Assembly: GCF_050920415.1 (NCBI RefSeq)
Contig: NZ_CP169309.1
Source: Escherichia coli
Lineage (GTDB): Bacteria > Pseudomonadota > Gammaproteobacteria > Enterobacterales > Enterobacteriaceae
Direction: 5' to 3' (one strand)
Length of the DNA: 64,000 nucleotides
The notes beneath the pieces were generated by a model. It searched no databases. It was not told the origin of the DNA and was given only the letters and a program-made list of their open reading frames with translations. The position numbers and the translations under genes were made by a program. This document shows, piece by piece, positions 14,483 through 36,700 of the stretch. Each line of letters opens with the position of its first letter. Positions within the stretch are counted from its first letter, which is position 1.

Positions 14483-14510
14483 AAAAAAACCCGCTTCGGC
14501 GGGTTTTTTT
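14483..14510 (+). terminator. Intrinsic terminator of rplM-rpsI operon
   Basis: AAAAAAACCCGCTTCGGCGGGTTTTTTT hairpin with T7. Confidence 0.9.
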
Positions 14511-14843
14511 ATGGCTAAAATCTGAATCAGCGTAAAAAAAGGAATGTTGATTTTTGCTGTCGCCTGACAGACAGAAAACAAAAACCACATCGCCGATAAG
14601 GGACTAAGTCAACCATTTCAGACTAAAGCGCATCTCTTTTTCCCCATTTCCGGCATCGACTCACCACAAAGGTCACAAAATCTGGTAAACTATCATCCAA
14701 TTTTCTGCCCAAATGTCGGGTATTGCTCATTTTTTGTTTGATTTTCGAACAAAGAGAGTCGTTCCTTACTGGGTAACACAACTTCTGACTGGCCACCTGG
14801 TGGCTGGTAGCAGTAAAAATTCTGACTATACCTGGAGGTTTTC

Positions 14844-15482
14844 ATGGCTGTCGCTGCCAACAAACGTTCGGTAATGACGCTGTTTTCCGGTCCTACTGAC
14901 ATCTATAGCCATCAGGTCCGCATTGTGCTGGCTGAGAAAGGTGTAAGTTTCGAGATCGAACACGTGGAAAAGGACAATCCGCCTCAGGATCTGATTGACC
15001 TCAACCCGAATCAGAGCGTTCCGACCCTGGTGGATCGTGAGCTGACCCTGTGGGAATCTCGCATCATTATGGAATATCTGGATGAGCGTTTCCCGCATCC
15101 GCCACTGATGCCTGTTTACCCGGTAGCTCGCGGTGAAAGCCGTCTGTACATGCATCGCATCGAAAAAGACTGGTACACGCTGATGAACACCATCATCAAC
15201 GGTTCAGCTTCTGAAGCAGATGCCGCACGTAAGCAACTGCGCGAAGAACTGCTGGCGATTGCGCCGGTCTTCGGTCAGAAGCCGTACTTCCTGAGCGATG
15301 AGTTCAGCCTGGTCGATTGCTACCTTGCTCCGCTGCTGTGGCGTCTGCCGCAACTGGGCATCGAGTTCAGCGGTCCGGGTGCGAAAGAGCTGAAAGGCTA
15401 TATGACCCGCGTCTTTGAACGTGACTCTTTCCTTGCTTCTTTAACTGAAGCAGAACGTGAAATGCGTCTGGGCCGGAGTTAA
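14844..15482 (+). CDS. sspA: Stringent starvation protein A (GST-like, RNAP-associated)
   Basis: 212-aa ORF MAVAANKRSVMTLFSGPTDIYSHQVRIVLAEKG... Confidence 0.96.
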   Translation: MAVAANKRSVMTLFSGPTDIYSHQVRIVLAEKGVSFEIEHVEKDNPPQDLIDLNPNQSVPTLVDRELTLWESRIIMEYLDERFPHPPLMPVYPVARGESRLYMHRIEKDWYTLMNTIINGSASEADAARKQLREELLAIAPVFGQKPYFLSDEFSLVDCYLAPLLWRLPQLGIEFSGPGAKELKGYMTRVFERDSFLASLTEAEREMRLGRS

Positions 15483-15487
15483 TCTGT

Positions 15488-15985
15488 ATGGATTTGTCAC
15501 AGCTAACACCACGTCGTCCCTATCTGCTGCGTGCATTCTATGAGTGGTTGCTGGATAACCAGCTCACGCCGCACCTGGTGGTGGATGTGACGCTCCCTGG
15601 CGTGCAGGTTCCTATGGAATATGCGCGTGACGGGCAAATCGTACTCAACATTGCGCCGCGTGCTGTCGGCAATCTGGAACTGGCGAATGATGAGGTGCGC
15701 TTTAACGCGCGCTTTGGTGGCATTCCGCGTCAGGTTTCTGTGCCGCTGGCTGCCGTGCTGGCTATCTACGCCCGTGAAAATGGCGCAGGCACGATGTTTG
15801 AACCTGAAGCTGCCTACGATGAAGATGCCAGCATCATGAATGATGAAGAGGCATCGGCAGACAACGAAACCGTTATGTCGGTTATTGATGGCGACAAGCC
15901 AGATCACGATGATGACACTCATCCTGACGATGAACCACCGCAGCCACCACGCGGTGGTCGACCGGCATTACGCGTTGTGAAGTAA
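15488..15985 (+). CDS. sspB: Stringent starvation protein B (ClpXP adaptor)
   Basis: 165-aa ORF MDLSQLTPRRPYLLRAFYEWLLDNQLTPHLVV... with acidic C-terminal tail. Confidence 0.96.
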   Translation: MDLSQLTPRRPYLLRAFYEWLLDNQLTPHLVVDVTLPGVQVPMEYARDGQIVLNIAPRAVGNLELANDEVRFNARFGGIPRQVSVPLAAVLAIYARENGAGTMFEPEAAYDEDASIMNDEEASADNETVMSVIDGDKPDHDDDTHPDDEPPQPPRGGRPALRVVK

Positions 15986-15989
15986 AATG

Positions 15990-16022
15990 AAAACAGGCCC
16001 TGGCGGCCTGTTTTGTCTTTTT
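15990..16022. terminator. Bidirectional terminator between sspB and dcuD
   Basis: AAAACAGGCCCTGGCGGCCTGTTTTGTCTTTTT hairpin flanked by A/T runs. Confidence 0.8.
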
Positions 16023-16028
16023 AATCGC

Positions 16029-17396
16029 TTAATAAAATAGCGTGATAGTGGCAATCATATTCACCACGAAACCGACTGACATGGGGATCGCTGTCCGCTT
16101 CACTACCGCAAAAGGCGAAACGCCTGCAATTCCTGACGTAACGACCACCACCGCAGTAATCGGCGAAACAGCGCGCGCTAGCGTCGTGGCAAAATGCATC
16201 GGCATAATCATTACAACCGCTGGTACATGTAGTCCGGCTGCGATATTCGGAATAAGACTGGCAAATGACATAAATGGCGCATTGCCTGAGCCCATCACAA
16301 TGGCACAAATGGCAATGACCAGCGCCATAATAATCATCACGCCAATACCGCCCAGACCAGAATGCTCCGCCCCCCTGATAACCGCATCGACAGTGCCAAT
16401 CGTCGTTAAGCCTTTCGCAAATATTTCACCCGCGACCACCAGCGTTACCACGTTGGCAAACTGCGTACCCATGCCGTCAAAAAACGCCTGCACATTGTCC
16501 ATTGTTTCGCGCAAATTATGCTTGCGGAAAAACTCAACAAACATCGTCACCGTCAAACTCAGTAACATCACCACCACCAGATGCAGTTCTGACTGCATCA
16601 GTCCAGCGTGGGCGAGGAACAGCGAGCCGAGCATCAGGATTAACGGCATCACCGGTAAAATGGCGTAATAGAGCGGCGGGACATTATCGAGAGCTTTTTG
16701 CTCCGCCTGCTCGTGATTGATATTTTTATCTTTTTTGTCAAAAGCGCGTTGCACGAAAAAGTGAGAGATCGCTACCGAGATAATGACGCAAGAGGCGACC
16801 GGAAGCTGGTAGTGGAAGAAGTAAGTGGCAATTTTCATTCCTGCCACCTGGGCCGCAAAAATAGAGTTCGTTTCCAGAATCCCCCACTCAATGGACATCG
16901 TGGTTGCGATAACTGCCACCGCAGAGAGTCGACTTACTCCCAGACTCACTAGTGTTGGAAATAAGGTGACCATCAGCAACATACCCAGACCGGAGGCGCT
17001 GGTAATAAACTGCGCCATGATTTGGCCGATAACGTAAGTTGCCGACAGAATAAGATACGGCGAGCGAATGAGTTTTAACGGGCGGCTTAACAAGCTCACC
17101 ATCGCCCGACTGGCTCCTATGCGCTCCATGTAGCGGGCATACCCGCCCACAGCCATAATCGACAACCCTAACCCGGCAATGCGGTTGGACAGCATGCGCA
17201 GGATTTCATTATAAATATCGACGATCAAGTAGCCGCTGCTTTTGGCGGGATCGAGTACTCCACCGAACCCTAACCAGACACCGCACATCATCAGGAAGAT
17301 ACCTGCGGCAGCCAGCACCACTTGAGGTTTGTAGTTTTTCAGGATCAAATAGCCCATCGTCATTAATACGATGACAGATATAATTATGCCGAACAT
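16029..17396 (-). CDS. dcuD: C4-dicarboxylate transporter, DcuC family (DcuD)
   Basis: 455-aa polytopic membrane ORF from [25 protein letters not shown]...; the ORF-track start at 17414 is 6 codons upstream. Confidence 0.9.
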
Positions 17397-17775
17397 TGTT
17401 GAACTCCGTGTCAAAAGAAAACGGTCAATCCCATAAACGGCAGATTGAAAACAGTGATGTTATATTTTTTGCAAGGCTATTTATGGTGTTGGTGTCGTAT
17501 TTTTTAATTCTGGATGAGGCGATTTTTCATTATAAAATATGCATTTATGATTATTTTGTAAGAACATATTCGTAATATTCATAATGCTTGTGAATAGTCT
17601 TATGAATAATTCATTCAGGATGTTTTTATCGGCGTTACACTAATTTTCGCAATAGTTAATTATTACGTTAATTATGATAATAATGAGACACAAAGAGAAA
17701 AAACCGCCATTTCCCCCTACTTTCAATCCTGTGATAGGATGTCACTGATGATGTTAATCACACTGACCTTACAGA

Positions 17776-18567
17776 ATGGGCCTTATGAACGCATTTGATT
17801 CGCAAACCGAAGATTCTTCACCTGCAATTGGTCGCAACTTGCGCAGCCGCCCGCTGGCGCGTAAAAAACTCTCCGAAATGGTGGAAGAAGAGCTGGAACA
17901 GATGATCCGCCGTCGTGAATTTGGCGAAGGTGAACAATTACCGTCTGAACGCGAACTGATGGCGTTCTTTAACGTCGGGCGTCCTTCGGTGCGTGAAGCG
18001 CTGGCAGCGTTAAAACGTAAAGGTCTGGTGCAAATAAACAACGGCGAACGCGCTCGCGTCTCACGTCCTTCTGCGGACACCATCATCGGCGAGCTTTCCG
18101 GCATGGCGAAAGATTTCCTTTCTCATCCTGGCGGGATTGCCCATTTCGAACAATTACGTCTGTTCTTTGAATCCAGCCTGGTGCGCTATGCGGCTGAACA
18201 TGCCACCGATGAGCAAATCGATTTGCTGGCAAAAGCACTGGAAATCAACAGTCAGTCGCTTGATAACAACGCGGCATTCATTCGTTCAGACGTTGATTTC
18301 CACCGCGTGCTGGCGGAGATCCCCGGTAACCCAATCTTTATGGCGATCCACGTTGCCCTGCTCGACTGGCTGATCGCCGCACGTCCAACCGTGGCTGATC
18401 AGGCTCTGCACGAGCATAACAACGTTAGCTATCAACAGCATATTGCGATCGTTGATGCGATCCGCCGCCACGATCCCGATGAAGCCGATCGCGCGTTGCA
18501 ATCGCATCTCAACAGCGTCTCTGCTACCTGGCACGCCTTCGGTCAGACCACCAACAAAAAGAAATAA
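17776..18567 (+). CDS. nanR: GntR/FadR-family repressor NanR
   Basis: 263-aa ORF with HTH and FCD domain; precedes nanATEK. Confidence 0.95.
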
Positions 18568-18630
18568 TGCCACTTTAGTGAAGCAGATCGCATTATAAGC
18601 TTTCTGTATGGGGTGTTGCTTAATTGATCT

Positions 18631-18653
18631 GGTATAACAGGTATAAAGGTATA
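18631..18653 (+). promoter_or_regulatory. NanR operator: three GGTATA direct repeats in nanA promoter
   Basis: GGTATAACAGGTATAAAGGTATA about 35 bp upstream of nanA start. Confidence 0.8.
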
Positions 18654-18688
18654 TCGTTTATCAGACAAGCATCACTTCAGAGGTATTT

Positions 18689-19582
18689 ATGGCAACGAAT
18701 TTACGTGGCGTAATGGCCGCACTCCTGACTCCTTTTGATCAACAACAAGCACTGGATAAAGCGAGTCTGCGTCGCCTGGTTCAGTTCAATATTCAGCAGG
18801 GCATCGACGGTTTATACGTGGGTGGTTCTACCGGCGAAGCCTTTGTACAAAGCCTTTCCGAGCGTGAACAGGTACTGGAAATCGTCGCCGAAGAGGCGAA
18901 AGGCAAGATTAAACTCATCGCTCATGTAGGTTGCGTCAGCACTGCTGAAAGCCAACAGCTTGCGTCTTCAGCCAAACGTTATGGCTTCGATGCCGTCTCC
19001 GCCGTCACGCCGTTCTACTACCCTTTCAGCTTTGAAGAACACTGCGATCACTATCGGGCAATTATTGATTCGGCGGATGGGTTGCCGATGGTGGTGTACA
19101 ACATTCCGGCGTTAAGCGGCGTTAAACTGACCCTGGATCAGATTAACACTCTGGTTACGTTGCCTGGTGTCGGCGCGCTGAAACAGACCTCTGGCGATCT
19201 CTATCAGATGGAGCAGATCCGTCGTGAACATCCGGATCTGGTGCTCTATAACGGTTACGACGAAATCTTTGCTTCTGGTTTGTTGGCGGGCGCTGATGGT
19301 GGTATCGGCAGTACTTACAACATTATGGGCTGGCGTTATCAGGGTATCGTGAAGGCGCTGAAAGAAGGCGATATCCAGACCGCGCAGAAGCTGCAAACCG
19401 AATGTAATAAAGTCATTGATTTACTGATCAAAACGGGCGTATTCCGCGGCCTGAAAACGGTCCTGCACTATATGGATGTCGTTTCTGTGCCGCTGTGCCG
19501 CAAACCGTTTGGTCCGGTCGATGAAAAATATCTGCCAGAACTGAAGGCGCTAGCCCAGCAGTTGATGCAAGAGCGCGGGTGA
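18689..19582 (+). CDS. nanA: N-acetylneuraminate lyase
   Basis: 297-aa [53 protein letters not shown] (DHDPS/NAL family). Confidence 0.96.
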
Positions 19583-21917: not shown

Positions 21918-23250
<1,333 letters not shown>

Positions 23251-23268
23251 AACTTAGTTCGTTTTAAA

Positions 23269-23296
23269 GATTCTGCAGACACTGTCTGCAGAATTC
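23269..23296. repeat. Palindromic unit GATTCTGCAGAC-ACT-GTCTGCAGAATTC (fourth copy of the yhcG-internal repeat family), between convergent nanQ and yhcG
   Basis: Near-perfect 12-13 bp inverted arms around CAGAC-ACT-GTCTG; same core as repeats at 24031-24135. Confidence 0.75.
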
Positions 23297-23309
23297 GAAA
23301 CCGCTGAAA

Positions 23310-24437
23310 TTAACGGCGTCTATAGCCTTCCTCTAGCACCGCTTGTGTTCGAACGAGTTCATCCGCGAGTCGTTTTTCATCAGGTAGTTGCATCTTATAT
23401 TCGCTTGCCAGAACGGTGTTAGGCAAACCAGCCAGTGCATAATGTGCTTCTCCGACTCCTTTTTCTGCACAGAGAACCAGACCGATGGGCGGATTTTCAT
23501 CCGGTAGCGTCCAGTGCTCTTTGGCGTAGTTGAGATACATATTCATCTGTCCGGCATCGCTATAGCTGAATTTGCCCACTTTTAGATCGACGATTAGCAG
23601 GCAGCGTAAACGGCGGTGGAAAAACAGCAGATCGACACGAAACCAGTTGTCATCAATGCGTAACCTTCGCTGTCGACCAACAAAGGCAAAATCATCCCCA
23701 AGTTCCAGCATGAAATCCATCAGGTGGTTGATCAGCGCCTCCTCAAAATCGGATTCTGAGTATTCATCTTTCAATTCCAAAAATTCGAGCACAAAGGGAT
23801 CGCGTATCGCCTGTTGCGGAAGAATATGCGTCTCGGCAGGGGCGTGTTGTTGCAGCATGGCTGATTTGTCATATGACAGTAGTGTCCGCTCATAAAATTG
23901 GGTCGCAATTTGCCGCTCTAGCTGGCGGACAGACCAACCACAGCGGAGCGCCTCTTTTTCATAAAAGCTGCGGGCGTCAGCGTTTTTAACGGAAAGTAGA
24001 CGGACGTAGGTGGACCAGGGCAGTGGGAAGGATTTGGCAGACAGCGTCTGCCAAATCTTTGCCGATGGGAATTCTGCAGACGGTGTCTGCGGAATTCCCA
24101 ATGGTGTTAATTCGCCAGACACTGTCTGGCGAATTTCAACATGTTGAAAAAAGAGGTAAAAAAGCCTCATTTGGCGTAAGTTTTTTGCAGAGAACCCACG
24201 CTTATACCTTAGACTTAAATCCTTTGAGAGCCGTTTGATAAGCTGTGCACCATAAGCCGCTCTGGCCTCGCCGCCTTGTTCAAATTCGACAATCCGTCGA
24301 CCAATTTCCCAGTATGTCGCGGTCATTAACGCGTTAACGCTACGTACCGTTTCCGTGCGGGCGCTATCGACCAGGTGAATAATACCGTCGTGGATTTGCT
24401 GGTAGCCTGCTGTGGTTCCTTCTGAGAGCGATTCCAT
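23310..24437 (-). CDS. yhcG: DUF1016/YhcG-family protein with C-terminal PD-(D/E)xK nuclease-like motifs
   Basis: 375-aa ORF; C-terminal ...RIDDNWFRVDLLFF...LLIVDLKVGKF resembles a PD-(D/E)xK core; contains in-frame tandem repeats (IRQTVSGELTPLG / IPQTPSAEFPSAK / IWQTLSAKSFPLPW). Confidence 0.85.
   Translation of the reverse strand: MESLSEGTTAGYQQIHDGIIHLVDSARTETVRSVNALMTATYWEIGRRIVEFEQGGEARAAYGAQLIKRLSKDLSLRYKRGFSAKNLRQMRLFYLFFQHVEIRQTVSGELTPLGIPQTPSAEFPSAKIWQTLSAKSFPLPWSTYVRLLSVKNADARSFYEKEALRCGWSVRQLERQIATQFYERTLLSYDKSAMLQQHAPAETHILPQQAIRDPFVLEFLELKDEYSESDFEEALINHLMDFMLELGDDFAFVGRQRRLRIDDNWFRVDLLFFHRRLRCLLIVDLKVGKFSYSDAGQMNMYLNYAKEHWTLPDENPPIGLVLCAEKGVGEAHYALAGLPNTVLASEYKMQLPDEKRLADELVRTQAVLEEGYRRR
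24031..24135. repeat. Three tandem 39-bp-spaced palindromic repeats inside yhcG coding sequence
   Basis: Units GATTTGGCAGACAGCGTCTGCCAAATC (24031-24057), GGGAATTCTGCAGACGGTGTCTGCGGAATTCCC (24068-24099), AATTCGCCAGACACTGTCTGGCGAATT (24109-24135); period 39 bp = 13 codons. Confidence 0.8.
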
Positions 24438-24635
24438 TATCTGTCCCTTTATATGGCGCTGCGTTGAATAATGGGATCAGCTATACGCCGGGCATCTGCC
24501 GGTAACAATCCAGGTGGGCTTGTTACATGGGTTTTCTTCACGTTATGCGAGGCGCTTTCCAGCAATTGTGCTGTAACGTTGTGCTGAAGATGAAGCAAAT
24601 AAAAAGGCCGGAGCGGGCGCATCCGACCAGAATTT

Positions 24636-25805
24636 TCAGGAAGTTTCTCTTGCTGTCACTACGCCATTTTGCGCAGCCCACAGATTCACATCTTCCTTAC
24701 GAATGGCGGCGGCCATCATGCCGGGGAATAAATCAGGGGTACAGGCAAAGGAGGGAATACCCATGGCGGCGAGTTTTCCTGCCAGTGACCGGTCGTAAAA
24801 CGGTGCGCCTTCGTCGCTTAAGGCCAGCAGGGTAACCACCTGTACGCCGGACTGAATCAACTCACTGGCGCGTTGCAACAGATTGCGTTCCACACCACCT
24901 TCGTAGAGGTCGGAAATCAGCACCAGAATGGTATTACGCGGATCGCGAATCAAAGACTGGCAGTAACCTACCGCGCGGTTGATGTCGGTGCCGCCGCCCA
25001 GCTGCACGCCAAACAGCAGCTCTACCGGATCGTCGAGCTTCTCTGTCATATCAACCACTGCGGTGTCGAAAACCACCAGATGCGTTTTTACCGCCGGGAG
25101 CGATGCCATTACTGCGCCAAAAATACTGGAATAGACCACCGAGGAGGCCATCGACCCACTCTGGTCGATACATAAAATGATCTCCTTTTGCGTGCGTTGA
25201 GACTTGCGCCCGTAGCCGATTAACGTTTCAGGAACAATACTTTTGTACTCTTCCTGCCAGTGGCGCAGGTTGGCGCGAATGGTGCGCTGCCAGTCAATTT
25301 CCGCGTGGCGCGGGCGACGATTACGTACCGCACGATTAAGAGCGCCGCTTACCGCGCTACGCATTGGCTCTTCAAGCTGTTTCATCAATTGCTCGACAAC
25401 TTTACGCACCACAATCCTGGCGGTTTCTTTGGTTTTGGCCGGAATTACGCCATTCAGCGACATCAGCGTGGAGACCAGATGAACATCAGGCTGGACGTTT
25501 GCCAGCATCTCTGGCTCCAGCAACATACTGTGCAAATTAAGACGTTCAAAGGCGTCTTTTTGCATCACCTGAACCACAGAAGAGGGGAAATACTGGCGAA
25601 TATCACCCAGCCAGCGAGCGACTTTGGGTGACGATCCACCCGTGCCGCCGCGTAATCCATGTTTACCGTCTGGCTGATAGAGCGCCGCCAGCGCGGCATC
25701 AATCGCGGACTCTCTGGCATCCAGCGCCACGTTACAGGCATTGTCGGCATCTTCTCCAAGGATCAGACGCCAGCGGCGCAGCCGTTCCATCTCGTTACTC
25801 GACAT
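24636..25805 (-). CDS. von Willebrand factor A (vWA) domain protein with MIDAS motif; YehP-like
   Basis: 389-aa ORF; DxSxS MIDAS motif in ILCIDQSGSM; last gene of the five-gene operon; overlaps upstream gene by 11 nt; SD-like GGGAA before ATG. Confidence 0.8.
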   Translation of the reverse strand: MSSNEMERLRRWRLILGEDADNACNVALDARESAIDAALAALYQPDGKHGLRGGTGGSSPKVARWLGDIRQYFPSSVVQVMQKDAFERLNLHSMLLEPEMLANVQPDVHLVSTLMSLNGVIPAKTKETARIVVRKVVEQLMKQLEEPMRSAVSGALNRAVRNRRPRHAEIDWQRTIRANLRHWQEEYKSIVPETLIGYGRKSQRTQKEIILCIDQSGSMASSVVYSSIFGAVMASLPAVKTHLVVFDTAVVDMTEKLDDPVELLFGVQLGGGTDINRAVGYCQSLIRDPRNTILVLISDLYEGGVERNLLQRASELIQSGVQVVTLLALSDEGAPFYDRSLAGKLAAMGIPSFACTPDLFPGMMAAAIRKEDVNLWAAQNGVVTARETS

Positions 25806-28044
25806 GATTTTCCCTTTCGTGTGGTGGCAAAGCCAGAATGCGGCGCAGTAGCGGCAGCATTAACGCGGCACGCTGTTCATCCCATATACCGCTGGTCTCT
25901 TCTTGCTGCGCGACACGCTCGCCCTGCGCGGCGCGTTCGCCTAACTGGCGGCGTTCCGGGCTGGAAAAACGGCCGAATGTCCGCCGCAGCATCGGCAGGA
26001 TCCGGGTGAAGTGATTGTCGTTCAGGCCGCTTAGCCAGGCATCGATCAACTGCCATAATTCGCTATTGTGCAGTAGCACCATCGCGCTGTCGTTGAGGAA
26101 ACCTTCCGCCCATGCGGCACTTTCCGCCGGGGGATTGGCTGGCGATAGCGCCAGGTTCATCAGCGTGGTGATCCGTTCTGTCGTTAACGTTTGCAGATCA
26201 AACAACAGGCGCGTCGCCGTTCCGCGAAGCAGCGCGTGTGCGGTACTGCCCTCTGCCAGCACCATCAACGCCTGCAACCAGCCCGCCAACAGATCTTCGT
26301 TATCCAGCAACCGCAGCGCGGCGTGAGCGTCGATAACTTTTTCTCTCATACTGGCGGCGCTGTCGTCGTTGAGCGCCGAACAGGCACCGGGTAGGGCGAT
26401 GGCGGCGCGCGGGGCGAGGCTCATCAGTACCTGCATTACCATACCAGAGTCGGTCTGGCGCACGTTGCCGTAGCGGACAATCGCCACCAGCGGTGCCAGG
26501 GCTTCCAGCAACTGTTCGATATTGCCCTGAGTGGCAGCCAGTGATTCCAGTGTATTGGCGATGGGGGCAATCGCGGCCTGTAAATCGGCCAGTAGCACTT
26601 GTTGGATAAGCTTTGCCAGTTCCGGCAGCGTGCTGGCGTATTGCGCCCTCACAATGGCATAGCGGGAGCTGGCCTGCTCAATGCTGTTACCCCAACGGCT
26701 GGCGGTAATGATGTTCATTGCCAGTGCCGGTTCCCAGCGCAGCGACCAGACTTCGTGGAACGTCCCTTTGCTGTTATTTCCTTGTCCAGCCAGACGGCCC
26801 CAGGAAATGTCGAGTAAGGTCAGGCGATGCAGTAAATGGCTACGCGCCAGATCGCCGGGTTTGCGCAGATCAAGATCCAGCACTTTTTCGCTGGCTTCTG
26901 CCTTCAGGCGCAGCGTTTTTTGCTGTTGCGTAATGTCGCGTTGGAGCGGCACGACGGGCGTATCATCCGGTACGCTTCCCAGCGCGTCGCCGACAATTAA
27001 CTTCTGGCGAATCATCTGCATTGGCGCGCTTTCGCCCATACACACTACGGTTTGCAGCGCTTCGCAAAGTTCGTCAAGCCCCGGCTGCGGGTGATGGCGC
27101 ATAATCGCCAGCGTCTGCGCCAGCCGCGCCGCTTCGATAATGTGGGCGCTGGAACAGTCGAGATCGGCTTCGCGAAACAGCCTTGCCGCGCGTGACAGCC
27201 AGCCGATATCGCGGTGAGAAGCGCCCTGATAACGCCACAGATGATCGTACCATTCCGGTGACACCACCCCTGCGCCATAACCGCTGGCGCGGCTTAACGC
27301 CTCGTAGCTCCAGGGCGTCCAGGCTGCCGCGACCTTGCACTTCGGCAAATTTTTCAGCAGTTCGTTATCATTCTTTGCGGGCGGCAGGTTTTCCAGCGCC
27401 GGAACGTGCCACGCACCGCAGACTACCGCGATGCGCGAGAAGCCCTCTTTTTTCGCCTGACGTAGCGTCTTGCGCATATACGCTTCACGCAGTTGATCTC
27501 TGGCTGAGTTTCGGGCTTCGGGAGTTGCCTGGCGTAGGGCAATCATCGCCTCGCGAATCGCCTCGAACAGAGACAAATCATCTTCGCGTTCCTCTACTCT
27601 GTGGCTCCACCAGCTTTCCCCATCGGTGTAACCGGCGGCGCGGCCCAGCCAGTCCAGCGGATCGCCGTCGGGACTGGCTTCAACGGCATCATCGTCATCG
27701 CTCTCTTTTTCGTCATCAAGCGCGAACTGATGACTGATGGGCAAGTCCATAAAGCGCACGGCGATATTTTGCTCAAAACCATAGCGCAGCGCCTGCCATT
27801 CCGGGGAGAACGCCGCAAAGGGGTAAAACGCGGCGTGATGTGAGTCGTCCGGGGCATAAATCAGTAGCGCGACCGGCGGTTGCATCTGTTCATGCTGCAT
27901 GAAAGGCAGGATGGATTCGCCGTCGGGCGGCCCTTCCACCAGCAGGCAGTCGGGCTGTAGCGTCTCCAGCGCCTTTCGCAGGCTGCGCGCGCAGCCAGGG
28001 CCATGGTGACGGATGCCAAACAAATGAACGGTTTGTTCAGTCAT
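25795..28044 (-). CDS. Large uncharacterised protein (749 aa) with N-terminal TraB/PrgY/GumN (TIKI)-like motifs; YehM-like by size and position
   Basis: N-terminal VHLFGIRHHGPG...DCLLVEGPPD and later RIAVVCGAWHVPAL resemble the two conserved motif blocks of the TraB/TIKI family; long helical C-terminal region; domain call from motif recognition only. Confidence 0.7.
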   Translation of the reverse strand: MTEQTVHLFGIRHHGPGCARSLRKALETLQPDCLLVEGPPDGESILPFMQHEQMQPPVALLIYAPDDSHHAAFYPFAAFSPEWQALRYGFEQNIAVRFMDLPISHQFALDDEKESDDDDAVEASPDGDPLDWLGRAAGYTDGESWWSHRVEEREDDLSLFEAIREAMIALRQATPEARNSARDQLREAYMRKTLRQAKKEGFSRIAVVCGAWHVPALENLPPAKNDNELLKNLPKCKVAAAWTPWSYEALSRASGYGAGVVSPEWYDHLWRYQGASHRDIGWLSRAARLFREADLDCSSAHIIEAARLAQTLAIMRHHPQPGLDELCEALQTVVCMGESAPMQMIRQKLIVGDALGSVPDDTPVVPLQRDITQQQKTLRLKAEASEKVLDLDLRKPGDLARSHLLHRLTLLDISWGRLAGQGNNSKGTFHEVWSLRWEPALAMNIITASRWGNSIEQASSRYAIVRAQYASTLPELAKLIQQVLLADLQAAIAPIANTLESLAATQGNIEQLLEALAPLVAIVRYGNVRQTDSGMVMQVLMSLAPRAAIALPGACSALNDDSAASMREKVIDAHAALRLLDNEDLLAGWLQALMVLAEGSTAHALLRGTATRLLFDLQTLTTERITTLMNLALSPANPPAESAAWAEGFLNDSAMVLLHNSELWQLIDAWLSGLNDNHFTRILPMLRRTFGRFSSPERRQLGERAAQGERVAQQEETSGIWDEQRAALMLPLLRRILALPPHERENHVE

Positions 28045-28061
28045 AGTGGTTGCCTTGCTGA

Positions 28062-29156
28062 TTACACAATTTCGCGGCAGGCGCGATAGAGATCGTTCCA
28101 GTCGCTGCGCTCTTTGACGATAGTTTCCAGATATTCACGCCATACCACGTCGTCCTGCACGGGATCTTTTACCACCGCGCCGATAAGGCTTGCGGCGATA
28201 TCCCGCGGATGCAGCACGCCGTCGCCAAAATGGCCCGCCAGCGCCATACCGTTGTTGATAACGGAGATCGCCTCCGCGGTGCTGAGAGTACTGGTTGGCG
28301 ACTTAATTTTCGTTTTGCCGTCAACCGTCAGGCCGTTTCGCAGTTCGCGGAAGATTTGCACGACTCGCTGGATCTCTTTAAGCGCTGGCGGTTTGGCAGG
28401 AAGTGCCAGCGCCTGACCCAGTTCGGCGACGCGGCGAGTGACAATGTTAATCTCTTCTTCTTCGCTGGCGGGTACGGGCAAAATGACCGTGTTGAAACGA
28501 CGTTTAAGCGCGGAAGAAAGCTCGTTAACGCCTTTATCCCGGTTGTTGGCGGTGGCGATAACGTTAAAGCCGCGCGTCGCCTGGACCTCTTCATTCAGTT
28601 CGGGGATAGGCAGCGTTTTTTCCGACAGGATCGTGATCAGCGTGTCCTGAACATCAGCAGGAATACGCGTCAGCTCTTCTACGCGTGCAATCTGCCCGCG
28701 CGCCATCGCCCGCATCAACGGACTTTCTACCAGCGCCAAACGTGACGGACCTTTAGAGAGCAACTCCGCGTAGTTCCAGCCATAACGCATTTGTTCTTCA
28801 CCGGTGCCTGCGGTGCCCTGAATAATTAACGTTGAGTCGCCGCTGATGGCAGCCGCCAGATGTTCAGATACCCAGGATTTCGCAGTGCCGGGTACGCCAT
28901 ACAACAGCAGTGCGCGATCGGTTGGCAGCGTGGCAACGGCGGTTTCGATAATCCGCCGGTTGCCGATATATTTCGGCGTGACCTCAAAGCCATTTTCCAG
29001 CTGCCCGCCCAACAGATAGGTGGCGACGGACCATGGAGAAATGGCCCAGTTTTCCGGGCGCGGATGAGTATCGTTTTTTTGCAGCTCATCCAGTTCTTCA
29101 GCAAATTGTTGTTCGGCATGTCGGCGTAAAACGGCGGCAGTAGCGGTAGCATTCAT
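28062..29156 (-). CDS. MoxR-type AAA+ ATPase (YehL-like)
   Basis: 364-aa ORF; Walker A GVPGTAKS; sensor-1-like FNVIATANNRD; ATGA overlap with upstream gene. Confidence 0.82.
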   Translation of the reverse strand: MNATATAAVLRRHAEQQFAEELDELQKNDTHPRPENWAISPWSVATYLLGGQLENGFEVTPKYIGNRRIIETAVATLPTDRALLLYGVPGTAKSWVSEHLAAAISGDSTLIIQGTAGTGEEQMRYGWNYAELLSKGPSRLALVESPLMRAMARGQIARVEELTRIPADVQDTLITILSEKTLPIPELNEEVQATRGFNVIATANNRDKGVNELSSALKRRFNTVILPVPASEEEEINIVTRRVAELGQALALPAKPPALKEIQRVVQIFRELRNGLTVDGKTKIKSPTSTLSTAEAISVINNGMALAGHFGDGVLHPRDIAASLIGAVVKDPVQDDVVWREYLETIVKERSDWNDLYRACREIV

Positions 29157-30757
29157 AAAGTGGTTTCTCCGACAAAAAGCGAATTAAGTTGAATTCGGTT
29201 CGCCAGCGCGGCGCTCAGGGCAGTAAAGGCTGCCTCGCAATAAGGCGTTTGTTGTGCGTCGTGCGGCCACTTGTCAATGACATCATTGAGGACTTCGGGG
29301 GCCAGCAGGCAGGCGAAATCACTCATCACATGGCGCAGGGCGTAGTCAAAGCGCGCGGAATCATATTTCACCCAACGGTGTAGCTCCGTGACCATTTGCT
29401 GGCTCAGGCGCAGGCTAAAGAGCGACGCATCCAGCGGTAACAGGCTGATGTAGCGATGTAAATGTTCGCCGCCCACCACTGAGAACAATGACCGTAACAT
29501 CGGCTCGTGTTCTTCTACAGGCAGACATTGCAAAAGCTCAAAGGCGTTAATCTTCACGCCTGCAGGATGATGAATGCTCATTCCGACGGGCAGCATGGCG
29601 AGAAACGCCTGCGCCCACTGCGGATTTTTTTCGCGCAGTACGGCGTGATACCAGGCGCGCAGTAGCGCCTTCTGCCAGTCGGTTTTCCCGGCCCAGCGCA
29701 GCAGTTCAACGGGGGTAGCCTGCAGTTGCGTTTGCCACCAGTCGAGCGGAACCGCTGCAACTATCTGATACAGCCACCATGCGCGCTGGCCCAACTTTTC
29801 GCCTTTGGGCTTAGTTTCTTCCAGCGCATCGGCCTTCCACTCTGGTAAGAACGCCTCCGGGGCATCAAGGGCGACGTGCAGCATTTTTTCTTTGCCGGAT
29901 AAGCCTTTTAGCCTTTCAAGTAAGGTCTCAGGAGCGGGGGATGAACTGAGCAACGGCGCTAACCGAGACTTCATGCGCGAGATCCAGGCGCTTTCCGGCA
30001 GACAACACAGTAACCGTGCCGCAGTTTGCCGCACCTCTTTGCTGCGATCGGATAATGTCTGTTCCAGAAAGGCTTCGTCGTGTTGGGAGATCTCCACTTC
30101 CAGCACAGCCAGCAGCTGTGCGCGTTCGCGGGCATCCAGCGAACTCATCTCCTGCGCCAGCCGATCGCGACCCTGTTCCGGGGCGCGAATGCGCATTTGC
30201 GTCAGATATTGCAGACGCTGTTCGGACGTGCCGTGCAGCCACATTTCTTCATCCAGCGGAGCGTCAACGGAGGCAAGAAAATAGCGCCAGTCGGCGTTAA
30301 TTTGCGCCAGCCAGCGCCCGCGAGCGCCGAGGACATTGGGCAGAATGCCGCGTATTGATGGATTTTGTACGCCGTAATTCAGCAGTGCCGGTAACAGCAG
30401 GGGCGGAGAAAGAAGCTGACGCTGGACCAGGTGATCAAGCGCTGACCACAGTAAACGCGGCGGCCCTTCTGCCAGCAACAGATGCAGCAGTCCCGCAAAA
30501 GCCGGGTTGTTTATTGGCTCGGCATTTTCTTTATCGATTTCCGGCAGCGGTGCGGGGTCAATCGCCTGCGGCACCCAGCCAGCCAGATGGCAGAGCGCCA
30601 GAACGCCCGCCGAGCGCAGTAGCTGTTGCTCTGCGGATGTGTTATTCGCCAGTTCAGACAGTAACAGCCCAATCTCACTTTGCGACGCCGACGGTGTGAA
30701 CGCTTTTTTGTCTGTGCCGAGTAGCGCTGTGCGGGTTAAATTTTGCCATTCGTTCAT
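29153..30757 (-). CDS. Uncharacterised protein (about 534 aa), helical, no recognised catalytic motif
   Basis: Long ORF (ORF track 29153-30778); preferred start ATG at 30757, which has GGAGG 7 nt upstream and forms an ATGA overlap with the stop of the SWIM gene. Confidence 0.7.
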   Translation of the reverse strand: MNEWQNLTRTALLGTDKKAFTPSASQSEIGLLLSELANNTSAEQQLLRSAGVLALCHLAGWVPQAIDPAPLPEIDKENAEPINNPAFAGLLHLLLAEGPPRLLWSALDHLVQRQLLSPPLLLPALLNYGVQNPSIRGILPNVLGARGRWLAQINADWRYFLASVDAPLDEEMWLHGTSEQRLQYLTQMRIRAPEQGRDRLAQEMSSLDARERAQLLAVLEVEISQHDEAFLEQTLSDRSKEVRQTAARLLCCLPESAWISRMKSRLAPLLSSSPAPETLLERLKGLSGKEKMLHVALDAPEAFLPEWKADALEETKPKGEKLGQRAWWLYQIVAAVPLDWWQTQLQATPVELLRWAGKTDWQKALLRAWYHAVLREKNPQWAQAFLAMLPVGMSIHHPAGVKINAFELLQCLPVEEHEPMLRSLFSVVGGEHLHRYISLLPLDASLFSLRLSQQMVTELHRWVKYDSARFDYALRHVMSDFACLLAPEVLNDVIDKWPHDAQQTPYCEAAFTALSAALANRIQLNSLFVGETTL

Positions 30758-32076
30758 TGTGCGCCTCCGGTTGCCCAAATCACGCTACCGGCAAGCCAGG
30801 CGCTACAGGGCGTCAGCTGCTGACCATCCCATTCCCCCATTAGCATAAACGGCGCGCCGCCGCTGGCCGCCAGTAACCGCCAACCCTCGTCCGACGACAG
30901 GTGCGTCGGTAAGTGCTGGCCCTGTGTCGAGACGAATCGCCAGCCGCTCTCGTGCGGGTAAATCAATATTTCGCTTACTCGCAGCGGCAGAGGCCATTGC
31001 CAGGGATTCGCGCTAAGCCGCTGCGCCATGTCATGCAGCGCGTCCGGGAGGGGTAATTCTGCAAGCGGGAATCTTTCACCGCGGGTAAACGGCTCCACAA
31101 TCCGCGCCCGTAGCGGTGATGCGCCAGGGAAAAAGGCAAGCGCGCCCTGGCAGACTTGCCCGGTGATAAAGTGCTGGGGAAAGTTTTTACCACCGTGTGA
31201 ATAGTCCAGCAGTAGCGCGGTGCGGTGGCTCTTTTCTCCGTACAGCCAGACCCGGCGTCGCCACAGATTATTCTCTTCTTGCGCGCTTTGGCCTAAGACC
31301 TGCCAGTTATCAAGGCAGGTTAGTCCGTCAGCGATGTCATGTTTATCCGGGGTTATTCCCAATGCTGCATGGAGATCGCTAAGTTGTGCCGGGGATAACA
31401 TTTGTTGCTGGCGCCAGGCGTCAATAATCAGCTGTAGCTGCCCCAGTTCTTTGCACAGGCTCGATGGCCATACCTCGGCGGTAGTAAAAAGAGTGGTCAG
31501 ATTGTTCAGGCGAGCGGCAATTCCCGGTAGTTGAGCGTCGACCATGCGGGCGGCGATCCCGGCAAAAGGCAACTGTTGTGCAGAGATCTGCGCCAGACCG
31601 TGGCGGATCAGGTCGTGCATCCACTGTTCGAGGAAATCCAGCCCCGCCGTCATTTTTTGGTTGCGTGCCGCTTCCCGTTTGGCGGCAGCCTGCGGGTCGG
31701 CAGCTTTTGCCTCAGCCTGCTCTTTCTTTTCTTCTTTGCGAACCGCTCGCTGCTGGCGCGAGGTTAGCCACTCGCTTACCCATTCCGGCGGCTCGCCAGC
31801 GGTGAAACTTGCGGTGTGTTGCACCTGGAGCAAAAGCAACGCAAGGCTATGTTTACAGGGGAATTTACGGCTGGGGCAGGAACATTTACAGGCCAGATCC
31901 TGCCTGTCGACCCGTACCTGATAAGGGCGGGAGCCGCTGCCTTTACATTCTCCCCAGAACGCGGTCTCGCTATATCCCAGCGTCGGCCATTTTGCGGGGG
32001 CAACCAGGCCACGAGCCGCTTTAACCGAGGCGTCATCGGGCGCCAGGGCTTGCACTGATTCAACGGTCAGTTCCAT
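30754..32076 (-). CDS. SWIM zinc-finger domain protein (YehQ-like), first gene of operon
   Basis: 440-aa ORF; CxCxnCxH signature in DLACKCSCPSRKFPCKHSLALL; remainder unrecognised. Confidence 0.75.
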   Translation of the reverse strand: MELTVESVQALAPDDASVKAARGLVAPAKWPTLGYSETAFWGECKGSGSRPYQVRVDRQDLACKCSCPSRKFPCKHSLALLLLQVQHTASFTAGEPPEWVSEWLTSRQQRAVRKEEKKEQAEAKAADPQAAAKREAARNQKMTAGLDFLEQWMHDLIRHGLAQISAQQLPFAGIAARMVDAQLPGIAARLNNLTTLFTTAEVWPSSLCKELGQLQLIIDAWRQQQMLSPAQLSDLHAALGITPDKHDIADGLTCLDNWQVLGQSAQEENNLWRRRVWLYGEKSHRTALLLDYSHGGKNFPQHFITGQVCQGALAFFPGASPLRARIVEPFTRGERFPLAELPLPDALHDMAQRLSANPWQWPLPLRVSEILIYPHESGWRFVSTQGQHLPTHLSSDEGWRLLAASGGAPFMLMGEWDGQQLTPCSAWLAGSVIWATGGAQ

Positions 32077-32239
32077 TACAATTCTCTATTGGCGTGGGGA
32101 AATCGATGGGGTCAAGGAGGCGTTAAGCAAAGCAGGAGGAGACTGTTTTCCGTAACAGCGTATTGCGCGTCCATCGCAAATTTGTAGTGAGTATAGCGGG
32201 CGGTAAATTCAGGAAACAATGGCGGATAGCGGAAAGTGT

Positions 32240-32298
32240 AGTTTTTCGGAAAAAGATAACTTTATCCCGTGTAACCCGTTTTAAGCGGGCTACACGGG
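32240..32298 (-). terminator. Putative terminator downstream of gltD
   Basis: Minus-strand hairpin CCCGTGTAGCCCGCTTAAAACGGGTTACACGGG 8 nt after gltD stop, followed after a spacer by a T5 run; U-tract not directly adjacent. Confidence 0.4.
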
Positions 32299-32308
32299 AG
32301 GCTGCAAT

Positions 32309-33739
<1,431 letters not shown>

Positions 33740-36700
33740 TTACTGCGCCTGCACGCGCAACTCTGCTGCGCTACGACTACGGTGACCCAGCAGTGCTTTT
33801 ACATCACTGGACTTCGGTTTAACCAGCGCAAATTTCGTGGCGAAGGTTGACCAGTTAGCCAGAATCTCTTCACCACGCTGGGAACCGGTATGCTGAACAT
33901 GCTCGGTGATAAGACCACGCAGATGCTCTTCATGGATCGCCAGGGAGTCAACGCTTAAGACCTCGACCAGTTCCGGGTTAACGCGTTTGCGGAAATCGCC
34001 GCTTTCATCGAGAACGTAAGCGAAGCCGCCGGTCATGCCCGCGCCGAAGTTAACGCCGGTTTTACCCAGAATACAGACAATACCGCCCGTCATATATTCA
34101 CAGCCGTTGTCGCCAATGCCTTCTACCACGGTGATAGCACCGGAATTACGCACGCCGAAACGTTCACCCGCGCGGCCTGCGGCATACAGACGACCACCGG
34201 TCGCGCCATACAGGCAGGTATTGCCGATAATGCTTGCTTCATGGCTGCGGAAGGCTGAGCCAACCGGAGGACGAATGGCGATTAAGCCGCCCGCCATGCC
34301 TTTACCGACATAGTCGTTGGCATCACCGGTCAGGTACAGTTCCACGCCGCCCGCGTTCCACACACCGAAGCTCTGGCCTGCGGTGCCGTTGAAGTACGCT
34401 TTAATCGGATCGGCTGCCAGCCCCTGATCGCCGTGCGTCTGGGCGATATAGCCCGAAAGCGATGCACCCACGGAACGGTCGGTGTTGCGAATATCGAACC
34501 AGAAGGTTTTGCTCTGACGCTCATCGACAAACGGTTTTGCCTGTTGCAGCAACTGCGCGTTTAGCAGGCCATTATCAAACGGCGGGTTGTTTTCGGTACA
34601 GTAGAGCGCCTTACCTGGATGCGGCTCGGCAGTCTCCAGCAGCTTCGACAGCGCCAGTTTCTGCTGTTTGGCGGTGAAACCGTCCAGCTCTTTGAGCAGG
34701 TCGGTACGGCCAATCAGATCCACCAGGCGCGTTACGCCCAGTTGCGCCATCAGCTCGCGGGTTTCACGGGCGATAAATTCAAAGTAGTTGGTCACTTTGA
34801 ACGGTAAGCCGTGATAGTGGTTCTTACGCAGTTTGTCATCCTGAGTTGCTACACCGGTGGCGCAGTTGTTCAGGTGGCAGATTCGCAGGTATTTACAGCC
34901 GAGCGCCACCATCGGGCCAGTGCCGAAGCCGAAGCTTTCTGCGCCGAGAATCGCCGCTTTGATGATATCGACACCTGTTTTCAGGCCGCCATCGACCTGC
35001 AAACGGATCTTATGACGCAAGCCGTTGGCAACCAGCGCTTGTTGTGTTTCAACAAGCCCCAGTTCCCACGGGCAGCCTGCGTATTTCACCGATGAAAGCG
35101 GACTTGCGCCAGTGCCGCCGTCATAGCCTGCGATGGTGATTAAATCGGCATAAGCTTTCGCTACACCTGTGGCGATGGTACCAACGCCCGGTTCGGACAC
35201 CAGCTTCACGGAGATCATCGCTTTCGGGTTGACCTGCTTGAGGTCGAAAATGAGCTGCGCTAAGTCCTCGATAGAGTAGATATCGTGGTGCGGCGGCGGG
35301 GAGATCAGCGTCACTCCGGGCACCGAATAGCGCAGTTTGGCGATGTAAGGAGTGACTTTGTCGCCCGGCAACTGACCGCCTTCGCCCGGCTTCGCGCCCT
35401 GGGCGACTTTAATCTGAATGACGTCAGCATTGACCAGGTACGCCGGAGTAACGCCGAAGCGACCAGAAGCCACCTGCTTGATGCGCGACACTTTGTTAGT
35501 GCCGTAGCGCGCCGGATCTTCACCCCCTTCACCGGAGTTCGAGTTACCGCCGATGCTGTTCATCGCTTCCGCCAGCGCCTCGTGGGCTTCCGGGCTTAAC
35601 GCGCCGATAGACATCGCAGCAGTATCGAAGCGTTTAAACAGTTCGCTTGCCGGTTCAACATCAGCAATGTTGACCGCGTTTTCACCCGGTGTAATTGCCA
35701 GCAGATCGCGCAGCGTGGTTGCCGGACGTTCATTAACCAGCTTCGCGTATTCCTGATAGTCGCTATACTCGCCGCTCTGTACCGCCTGTTGCAGCGTGCG
35801 CACCACGTCCGGGTTGTAGGCGTGGTATTCGCCACCGTGCACATATTTCAATAGGCCGCCCTGGCTGATGGGCTTGCGCGCCAGCCAGGCACGTTTCGAC
35901 AGATTCAGCAGATCCTGCTGGAAGTCTTCAAAGCTTGCCCCACCAATGCGGCTGACCGCCCCCTGGAAGCACAGGCCCACTACATCATCGTGCAGACCGA
36001 CCGCTTCGAACAGTTTCGAGCAGCGGTAAGACGCGATGGTGGAGATGCCCATTTTGGACATGATTTTGTACAAGCCTTTGTTGATGCCGTTACGGTAGTT
36101 GAGCATCACGGTACGATAATCTTTGGCAATCGCGTGGGTGTCTACCAGGCGGCCCAGCGTTTCATAGGCCAGGTACGGATAAATAGCCGTCGCGCCGAAG
36201 CCCAGCAACACGGCGAAGTGGTGCGGGTCGCGGGCGCTGGCGGTTTCGACGATGATGTTGGCATCGCAACGCAGGCTTTGATCGACCAGACGAGTCTGGA
36301 TCGCGCCAACCGCCATTGGGGCCGGAACCGGCAGGCGATCTTTAGCGATATTCCGGTCGGAGAGCACCAGCAGCACGGTGCCGCTACGTACCATTTTTTC
36401 GGCTTTGTCGCACAGCTCTTTGACCGTCGATTCGAGCGTGGTTTTAGTGACGTCAAAGGTGATATCCAGTGTATCTGCGCGGTAGTGCTCCTCTTTCATC
36501 GTCGTGAGCTGTTTGAAATCGGAGTAGAGCAGAATCGGCGATTTAAAACTTAAACGGTGCGCCTGGCCCTCTGCTTCACAGAAGACGTTCATTTCACGCC
36601 CGATGCTGGTGGCGAGCGACATAACATGCGCTTCACGCAGTGGGTCGATTGGCGGGTTGGTGACCTGGGCAAATTGCTGGCGGAAGTAATCGTAAATAAT

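Follow-up and report, generated by a model that had tools for sequence, protein, structure and literature searches.

What stands between gltD and yhcG in this Escherichia coli genome, and is it, as the original prediction from the bare sequence had implied, a recent foreign replacement of the genes that K-12 carries there? The stretch analysed (the window) comprises 64,000 nucleotides of contig NZ_CP169309.1 (assembly GCF_050920415.1), and its gltD-yhcG interval is filled by five tightly packed minus-strand genes running in the same direction, which encode SWIM zinc-finger, DUF5691, AAA_5, DUF5682 and VWA proteins (hereafter the cassette). We regard it as very probable that these five genes are an operon complete in itself, that they represent one of five or more alternative alleles of a nanQ-gltD hot spot, and that they are distantly paralogous to the K-12 genes yehLMP(Q). 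The interval and its flanks contain the following features.

23310-24437, minus strand: yhcG, the left flank, outside the cassette; a PD-(D/E)xK nuclease of DUF1016 (Pfam DUF1016_N and YhcG_C)
24438-24565, no strand assigned: conserved yhcG upstream region, common to the cassette, yhcG-gltD and K-12 alleles
24566-32308, minus strand: variable segment of 7,743 bp, with the cassette, its own leader and own terminator, and the allele-specific gltD terminator
24597-24628, minus strand: probable intrinsic terminator of the cassette (hairpin 24606-24628, then a U-run at 24597-24605)
24636-25805, minus strand: VWA protein, 389 aa, CoxE-type (Pfam PF05762), with an intact metal ion-dependent adhesion site (MIDAS)
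25795-28044, minus strand: DUF5682 protein, 749 aa (Pfam PF18934), with an N-terminal TraB/ChaN (TIKI)-like alpha/beta domain and C-terminal helical repeats (predicted)
28062-29156, minus strand: MoxR-type AAA+ ATPase, 364 aa, AAA_5 (Pfam PF07728)
29153-30757, minus strand: DUF5691 protein, 534 aa from the annotated ATG (Pfam PF18944, E 4e-121)
30754-32076, minus strand: SWIM zinc-finger protein, 440 aa, with a SWIM domain, a long helical hairpin and beta-rich C-terminal domains
32077-32264, minus strand: putative leader and promoter region of the cassette, with a -10-like TATACT at 32195-32190
32265-32299, minus strand: allele-specific hairpin just 3' of the gltD stop codon, the probable gltBD terminator
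32309-33727, minus strand: gltD, the right flank, with the right junction at its stop codon

The five genes form one operon, since successive genes overlap by 4, 4 and 11 bp and are otherwise separated by a single gap of 17 bp. The longest open reading frame of the DUF5691 gene begins at a TTG (30778) upstream of the annotated ATG, and its product gave a weak HEAT match besides PF18944. Positions 23300-33800 are 100% identical to E. coli MFDS1022581 (NZ_CP169399.1), where the annotation of the five products reads SWIM zinc finger, DUF5691, ATP-binding, DUF5682 and VWA.

The junctions were set by aligning the window to a genome (L003) with the empty allele, in which yhcG adjoins gltD across a 183-bp spacer. 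The left junction fell at 24565/24566 (with ...GCTTTCCAG to its left and CAATTG... to its right) and the right junction at 32308/32309, exactly at the gltD stop codon, so placed that the variable segment stands in place of 58 bp of this commonest allele. The interval had been predicted to be wholly operon; the five genes do fill it, but its first 128 bases are the conserved yhcG upstream region, which found ~94% matches in 3,019 genomes. A three-way alignment had all yhcG-bearing alleles, the K-12 fimbrial insert included, diverging at one common left point, and on the other side three different hairpins were found directly 3' of gltD among the alleles, that of the window folding at -26.7 kcal/mol (z -5.2). 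The hairpin beyond the VWA gene folds at -16.6 kcal/mol and is followed by UUUUUAUUU, with a z of only -1.1; judged by shape and position, hairpin and U-run are a plausible and probable operon terminator, which the consensus scan missed because the loop has 9 nt. A consensus promoter scan gave no strong sigma-70 match for the operon, and from the sequence we infer a promoter within the leader region. Rfam returned no family for 23000-33900 at E values up to 1. One 7-nt word present at both junctions, TTCCAGC, was ruled out as a target duplication: both copies occur in every allele, and one lies within the gltD coding sequence.

Allele states of the locus were counted over 5,426 complete E. coli genomes. 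The counts below are of genomes rather than lineages, from a collection with a clinical bias.

yhcG adjoining gltD: 3,141 genomes (58%), the commonest state
K-12 gltF-yhcA-yhcD allele: 1,122-1,148 genomes (21%), all at least 99% identical
nanQ directly adjoining gltD, without yhcG (e.g. sequence type 131, ST131): 947 genomes (17%)
five-gene cassette: 33 genomes (0.6%)

The original prediction was right about K-12, which carries gltF, yhcA, yhcD, an IS5-split yhcE and yhcF at this interval, and right that the locus is variable, as the alignment for alternative alleles found at least five states among E. coli. Its choice of the K-12 genes as the replaced reference state did not hold: K-12 is not the default state of the locus, and its fimbrial genes are a minority, near-clonal insertion (1,122-1,148 genomes against the 3,141 in which yhcG adjoins gltD). 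The K-12 cluster shares with the cassette the interval and the left junction, 125-128 bp upstream of yhcG, but differs from it in consisting of chaperone-usher fimbrial genes with an AT-rich spacer, and in having as gltD terminator a palindrome, as in ST131-type genomes. The identity of at least 99% among all 1,148 carriers of this fimbria-like allele (L004 4429-8441) contrasts with the divergent flanks, and suggests a recent origin or spread of the allele.

Among the 33 cassette carriers, 29 have one identical-scoring allele of the SMS-3-5 type, with two small hypothetical genes in place of yhcG; in SMS-3-5 itself (L002 5114-5801) these replacement genes encode 190 and 48 aa, have no PADLOC match and leave a 123-bp remnant of yhcG. 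In the remaining carriers yhcG is truncated by an insertion sequence (one of the 33) or intact (three, including the window type). Over the whole collection yhcG is polymorphic at this locus, being intact, truncated by an insertion sequence, replaced or absent (947 genomes), and its product matches the PADLOC phage-defence candidate PDC-S02 (E 2.5e-135). A dcuC/dcuD-like transporter gene between sspB and nanR (16029-17396, minus strand) likewise varies in presence, a few kb from the hot spot: the window has it and the ST131-type genome L005 lacks it. The palindrome that serves as gltD terminator in K-12 (L004) and ST131-type (L005) genomes belongs to a family, ATTCnnCAGACnnnGTCTGnnGAAT, which in the window is found between nanQ and yhcG (23270-23295) and three times within the yhcG coding sequence (24032-24134), and which is not the gltD terminator in the window or the yhcG-gltD allele. 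These palindromes may be marks of old recombination or deletion end points at the hot spot. A 60% match at 24565-24604, considered as a 'fourth copy', was judged to be a chance match.

Was the cassette, then, a recent arrival? The reading of the original prediction, a recent foreign island from a GC-rich proteobacterial donor that entered by illegitimate or site-specific recombination and displaced gltF-yhcADEF, agrees with the rarity of the cassette, which is not the common state in most E. coli since only 33 of the 5,426 genomes carry it. It agrees also with the GC content, which is 57.3% in the block against 51.6% in the rest of the window and 49.3% in yhcG and makes the block the GC-richest 7.7-kb stretch of the window, and with the position of the nearest relatives outside the Enterobacteriaceae, whose DUF5682 proteins (47-61% identity) come from the GC-rich Rhodocyclales, Competibacteraceae, Pseudomonas and Comamonadaceae, plus Bilophila. 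However, the GC values of other core genes lie near that of the block (gltD 55.8%, gltB 56.8%, nanK 57.1%), the GC content at third codon positions (GC3) is 0.60-0.67 in the block genes and 0.63-0.66 in gltD and gltB, and the distance of the block genes from the pooled synonymous-codon usage of non-block genes (0.07-0.11) falls within the core range (0.07-0.23); rare codons make up 3.4-8.4% of the block genes, as in weakly expressed core genes. With such similar values in core genes the compositional case for foreignness is weak, and the predicted GC richness relative to the flanking core genes has stood in part only, as a higher overall GC that does not set the block apart from all of its neighbours. 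The nearest non-enterobacterial DUF5682 protein is only ~60% identical, and therefore no plausible recent donor is in view; moreover, the K-12 genes supposedly displaced are the near-clonal minority insertion described above. Together with the shared locus in Klebsiella huaxiensis, its synonymous divergence and the deep mosaicism of the E. coli alleles (all given below), this makes a recent import very unlikely.

The block is not a mobile element and lacks the features by which one would be recognized. No integrase or transposase is annotated in it, ARAGORN found no tRNA between 15 and 42 kb of the window, and the repeat search, junctions included, found no direct repeats flanking the block, only short chance-level matches, all as had been predicted. 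Close copies of the cassette were not found on plasmids or phages: the plasmid matches were all below 60% identity and mostly on non-mobilizable replicons, the one phage match was at 30%, and PHROGs matches were to families of unknown function only.

The E. coli DUF5682 proteins fall into one 90% cluster, and outside the species their identity is 77% to K. huaxiensis and 65-67% to Superficieibacter electus and an Enterobacteriaceae metagenome-assembled genome (MAG). K. huaxiensis carries the cassette at the same locus, in the order gltB-gltD-cassette-nanQ. Synonymous divergence (dS, Nei-Gojobori) between the window and K. huaxiensis is 1.0-1.3 for the five cassette genes; in the flanks it is 0.9 for gltD, 1.2-1.7 for nanE, nanR, nanA and nanT, and 0.7-1.2 for sspA and sspB. 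Cassette and flank values being equal, the two cassettes are as old as the divergence of their hosts, within the limits of near-saturated dS. Within E. coli the cassette has a lower dS (0.01-0.11) than its flanks (0.09-0.27), and the four E. coli cassette alleles form a mosaic, in which patches of the AAA_5 gene (28214-28613) and the DUF5691 gene (29414-30613) are 7-11% apart and neighbouring stretches are identical. To judge from the sequences, these patches are most probably recombination tracts from unsampled, more divergent cassette alleles. Compared with the SMS-3-5 allele, the window is identical over 32000-32332, a stretch of 333 bp that spans the right junction and stops 24 bp into gltD, where a divergence of 3.6% begins.

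Because of the K. huaxiensis locus, the dS parity, the codon usage and the mosaics within E. coli, the cassette looks like an accessory allele of long standing, which few lineages have kept and which is inherited, lost and exchanged by homologous recombination in the flanks (gltD and yhcG/nan); the recent replacement by foreign DNA that had been implied does not fit these four lines of evidence. Three points tell against an old exchanged allele. A dS of about 1 is near saturation and excludes a recent transfer between Klebsiella and Escherichia without proving vertical descent; in S. electus and the Enterobacteriaceae MAG the cassette stands at another locus, ygjQ-ygjR, and must therefore have moved by some route; and in the species-representative scan no Enterobacterales genome was among the best 80 of 167 matches.

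A stricter form of ancestry would place the cassette at the gltD-nan locus already in the Escherichia-Klebsiella ancestor and make the empty, fimbrial and nanQ-gltD alleles later deletions or replacements. It is favoured by the locus and orientation, which E. coli and K. huaxiensis share, by the dS parity with the flanks and by the ameliorated composition, and also by the homology of the upstream leader, ~190 nt of which can be aligned with the sequence that precedes the K. huaxiensis cassette (85% identity in a 39-nt core). On the other hand, 99.4% of E. coli are without the cassette, the 80 best species-representative matches include no Enterobacterales, no cassette remnants are seen in the empty, K-12 or ST131 spacers, and the junctions differ, K. 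huaxiensis having no yhcG and ~590 extra bases beside gltD. Furthermore, the cassette dS below that of the flanks within E. coli suggests spread between lineages. We therefore see strict ancestry as a minority possibility, to be kept in mind rather than preferred to the old, exchanged accessory allele.

With flanks only 95-96% identical to most E. coli, the window could have come from a divergent species (a cryptic clade); this was ruled out, because lineages differ mutually by 2-4% in the region and the rplM-sspB stretch is 98.8% identical. The nan-gltBD region as a whole (~17800-38300, nanR to gltB) is unusually divergent among E. coli lineages (2-5% at the nucleotide level, dS 0.09-0.27), and the stretch with 98.8% identity lies just upstream of it. 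Farther away, in aaeB (~4328), the window has an 11-bp deletion relative to NZ_CP169399.1 that would frameshift this efflux-pump subunit, with otherwise one mismatch only between window positions 12-18853 and that genome, so that the window stems from a very near relation of that strain and not from the strain itself.

What kind of system is the cassette? K-12 has an operon of similar content, yehLMPQ, with yehL (MoxR ATPase), yehM, yehP (VWA) and yehQ (SWIM), and three of the cassette proteins matched it by BLASTP: the AAA_5 protein and YehL (41% identity over 350 residues, E 8e-77), the DUF5682 protein and YehM (27%, E 3e-41) and the VWA protein and YehP (37%, E 2e-79). The SWIM and DUF5691 proteins had no BLASTP match to YehQ and no homology to it beyond the zinc-finger motif, and hhalign of the SWIM family against YehQ aligned the SWIM motif only, at a non-significant probability of 0.3%. 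Both systems thus contain a MoxR AAA_5 ATPase, a DUF5682 protein, a CoxE-like VWA protein and a SWIM protein, with identical MIDAS and ATPase motifs, but they differ in gene order (AAA-DUF5682-VWA-SWIM in yehLMPQ, SWIM-DUF5691-AAA-DUF5682-VWA in the cassette), in the lack of a separate DUF5691 gene in yehLMPQ and in distribution, yehLMPQ being near-universal (5,209 of the 5,426 complete E. coli genomes) and the cassette confined to 33. YehL gives its name to one of seven MoxR subfamilies (PMC3893208). The 41% identity to YehL and the homologous YehM and YehP neighbours point to this subfamily in a comparison that covered YehL alone, with MRP, RavA, CGN, APE2220, PA2707 and APE0892 outside it. 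At the level of sequence the cassette appears to belong with the YehL-type MoxR/VWA systems as a variant in its own right, and to be a second, distant copy of the yehLMPQ genes.

The module extends far beyond E. coli. In a tblastn search with the five proteins the order SWIM-DUF5691-AAA_5-DUF5682-VWA was found in 78 of 85 loci, the exceptions being mostly contig ends, and the AAA_5 and VWA genes co-occurred in 80 of the 85; loci with the conserved order came from Beta-, Gamma- and Deltaproteobacteria, Akkermansiaceae and Planctomycetes. Identity across taxa was 69-93% for the AAA_5 protein, 64-88% for VWA, 38-69% for SWIM and 27-57% for DUF5691. All five genes are under purifying selection, with ratios of nonsynonymous to synonymous divergence (dN/dS) of 0.04-0.27; DUF5691 evolves fastest (0.27), and the SWIM gene is at 0.16-0.18. 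The DUF5682 family comprises 4,445 clusters at 50% identity (E ≤ 0.001). S. electus (L095 1-3000) has a second MoxR system, with AAA_3, DUF2201 and HEAT/LRV proteins, just upstream of its cassette, and one metagenomic lineage (L096 10256-10867) carries an inserted gene for a rhomboid protease between those for DUF5682 and VWA.

The motifs of the two core proteins are complete. In the AAA_5 protein Walker A (GxPGTAKS), Walker B (RhEE), sensor 1 (IATAN) and the RR finger (KRRF) are invariant in 87 homologues including YehL; its PDB matches are midasin AAA domains and NorQ, and in NCBIfam it has sub-threshold MadB/GvpN matches only. The VWA protein has the full MIDAS motif (DxSxS...T...D), with DQSGS, GGGTD and SD invariant in 84 homologues. 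The DUF5682 protein was modelled at a pLDDT of 87.5, as an N-terminal alpha/beta domain followed by ~450 residues of helices. The predicted fold of the N-terminal domain, with a parallel beta-sheet core, resembles solved TIKI/TraB/ChaN/Ere members at moderate fold scores; the protein differs from the TIKI/TraB/PrgY/ChaN/erythromycin-esterase superfamily in the fused helical repeats and in being encoded within a MoxR/VWA operon. The catalytic pattern sought in it was 2His/2Glu (paired GxxH motifs plus Glu) in an active-site cleft. G10, R12, H13, H14, E37, R186, E187, G210 and H213 do not vary among 50 sequences, one of which is YehM, and in the predicted model H13/H14, E37, E187 and H213 follow strands beta1, beta2 and a later strand. 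The SWIM protein has a structure model and a ZSWIM8 match. PDB sequence searches with the DUF5682, VWA and DUF5691 proteins and the SWIM profile were empty, and all five proteins lack signal-like segments and clear membrane-spanning ones.

Our proposal for how the cassette works, which is tentative, is an ATP-driven MoxR/VWA switch that controls a TIKI-like hydrolase, following the general MoxR/VWA remodelling model (PMC7159879). The five cytoplasmic proteins would form one complex, as the operon structure leads us to assume. The MoxR hexamer would hydrolyse ATP and, through its VWA partner, whose MIDAS site may grip an acidic residue or peptide, remodel or gate the DUF5682 subunit. The TIKI-fold N-terminal domain of this subunit, with its invariant His and Glu residues, is predicted to be the likely catalytic hydrolase, a protease or esterase, its helical C-terminus and DUF5691 would serve as a scaffold, and the ligand or substrate could be selected by the SWIM protein, with its SWIM finger and its beta-barrel domains. 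Several points tell against this mechanism. An hmmscan of DUF5682 to E values up to 10 returned DUF5682 only and no Pfam TraB (TraB_PrgY_gumN) match, and a global Foldseek search with the model gave only helical-repeat noise, with no match at E ≤ 0.001. Some TIKI-fold proteins, such as ChaN and PMT, are not hydrolases. Literature searches found no papers on DUF5682 or DUF5691 and, for yehL/M/P/Q, only gene lists and unrelated word matches, so that no functional study of the cassette or of yehLMPQ was found. Taken as a whole, what the cassette is together with how it works, we nevertheless consider our explanation to be somewhat favoured.

To what end might such a switch operate? An anti-phage or conflict system, in which the MoxR/VWA pair, as a threshold switch, would free the TIKI-like protease once the SWIM/OB-like subunit senses an invader, is a possibility that we take seriously but think unlikely. 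CoxD/CoxE-derived MoxR-vWA pairs are switches in several predicted conflict systems (PMC7159879), and TIKI-fold toxins exist (RRSP, HopBA1). The cassette is patchy and accessory and lies in a variable hot spot beside yhcG, itself a defence candidate in PADLOC; the putative sensor and scaffold subunits, SWIM and DUF5691, evolve fastest, and DUF5691 has the divergent mosaic patches. With the vWA-MoxR ternary conflict systems (Kaur et al. 2020, PMC7159879) it shares a MoxR-vWA core with dedicated extra proteins, the accessory, patchy distribution and the logic of an ATP-gated switch. But it has, by Pfam, none of their defining third components (VMAP, iSTAND, FtsH, beta-propeller) and no effector or EAD fusions, its VWA protein of 389 aa has no extra domains, and the words 'SWIM' and 'YehL' do not occur in the paper on those systems (PMC7159879). 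Against PADLOC-DB v2.0.0 four of the five proteins had no match and the ATPase only a P-loop-level match to IetA (E 0.0017). Further, nearly every E. coli has the paralogous yehLMPQ, a distribution that typical defence genes do not show; dN/dS stays far below 1 throughout, and no defence genes consistently adjoin the cassette in other taxa.

Alternatively, the cassette could encode a chaperone dedicated to maturing, or inserting metal into, an enzyme whose gene lies elsewhere, like CoxD/CoxE, NorQ/NorD, CbbQ/CbbO and RavA/ViaA, in all of which a MoxR AAA+ ATPase gene adjoins the gene of a VWA partner; a candidate for the client is GltBD, the iron-sulfur flavoenzyme encoded next to it. The resemblance is in the core pair: the VWA protein is CoxE-type, by its Pfam family, the ATPase matches NorQ in PDB and the GvpN/MadB family, and the characterised MoxR systems are maturation factors (PMC3893208; PMC7159879). 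Those chaperone pairs, however, serve an identified external client enzyme, whereas the flanks of the cassette differ fully between taxa (gltD/nan, ygjQ/ygjR, signalling genes in Bilophila), and it therefore has no conserved external client. Unlike them, its pair always travels with three further conserved proteins, including that with the TIKI-fold domain, which argues that the client or effector is internal, and 99% of E. coli have no cassette and still make GltBD. We thus rate a maturation role as improbable, and leave what remains beyond the conflict and maturation readings to an unspecified housekeeping or stress role.

For E. coli, these results document nanQ-gltD as a multi-allelic hot spot with at least five states and correct the habit of taking K-12 as the default. 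Presence of the cassette allele in one strain is ordinary pangenome variation, but of a widespread, unstudied machine, a compact, strongly conserved module whose order is fixed across phyla and which has a paralogue in almost every E. coli. The predicted TIKI/TraB-like fold with invariant His and Glu would move DUF5682 and YehM from 'unknown function' to a testable hypothesis, that of a MoxR/VWA-controlled hydrolase, for which K-12 offers yehLMPQ and SMS-3-5 both systems. More speculatively, the cassette and yehLMPQ could together represent an undescribed class of MoxR/VWA-gated machines, in which a TIKI/TraB-fold hydrolase (DUF5682/YehM) and a SWIM/OB-like sensor would make up a regulated cytoplasmic protease or esterase acting in stress or inter-genomic conflict. 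If true, a family with over 4,000 sequence clusters, and with it four K-12 'y-genes', would for the first time have a function assigned.

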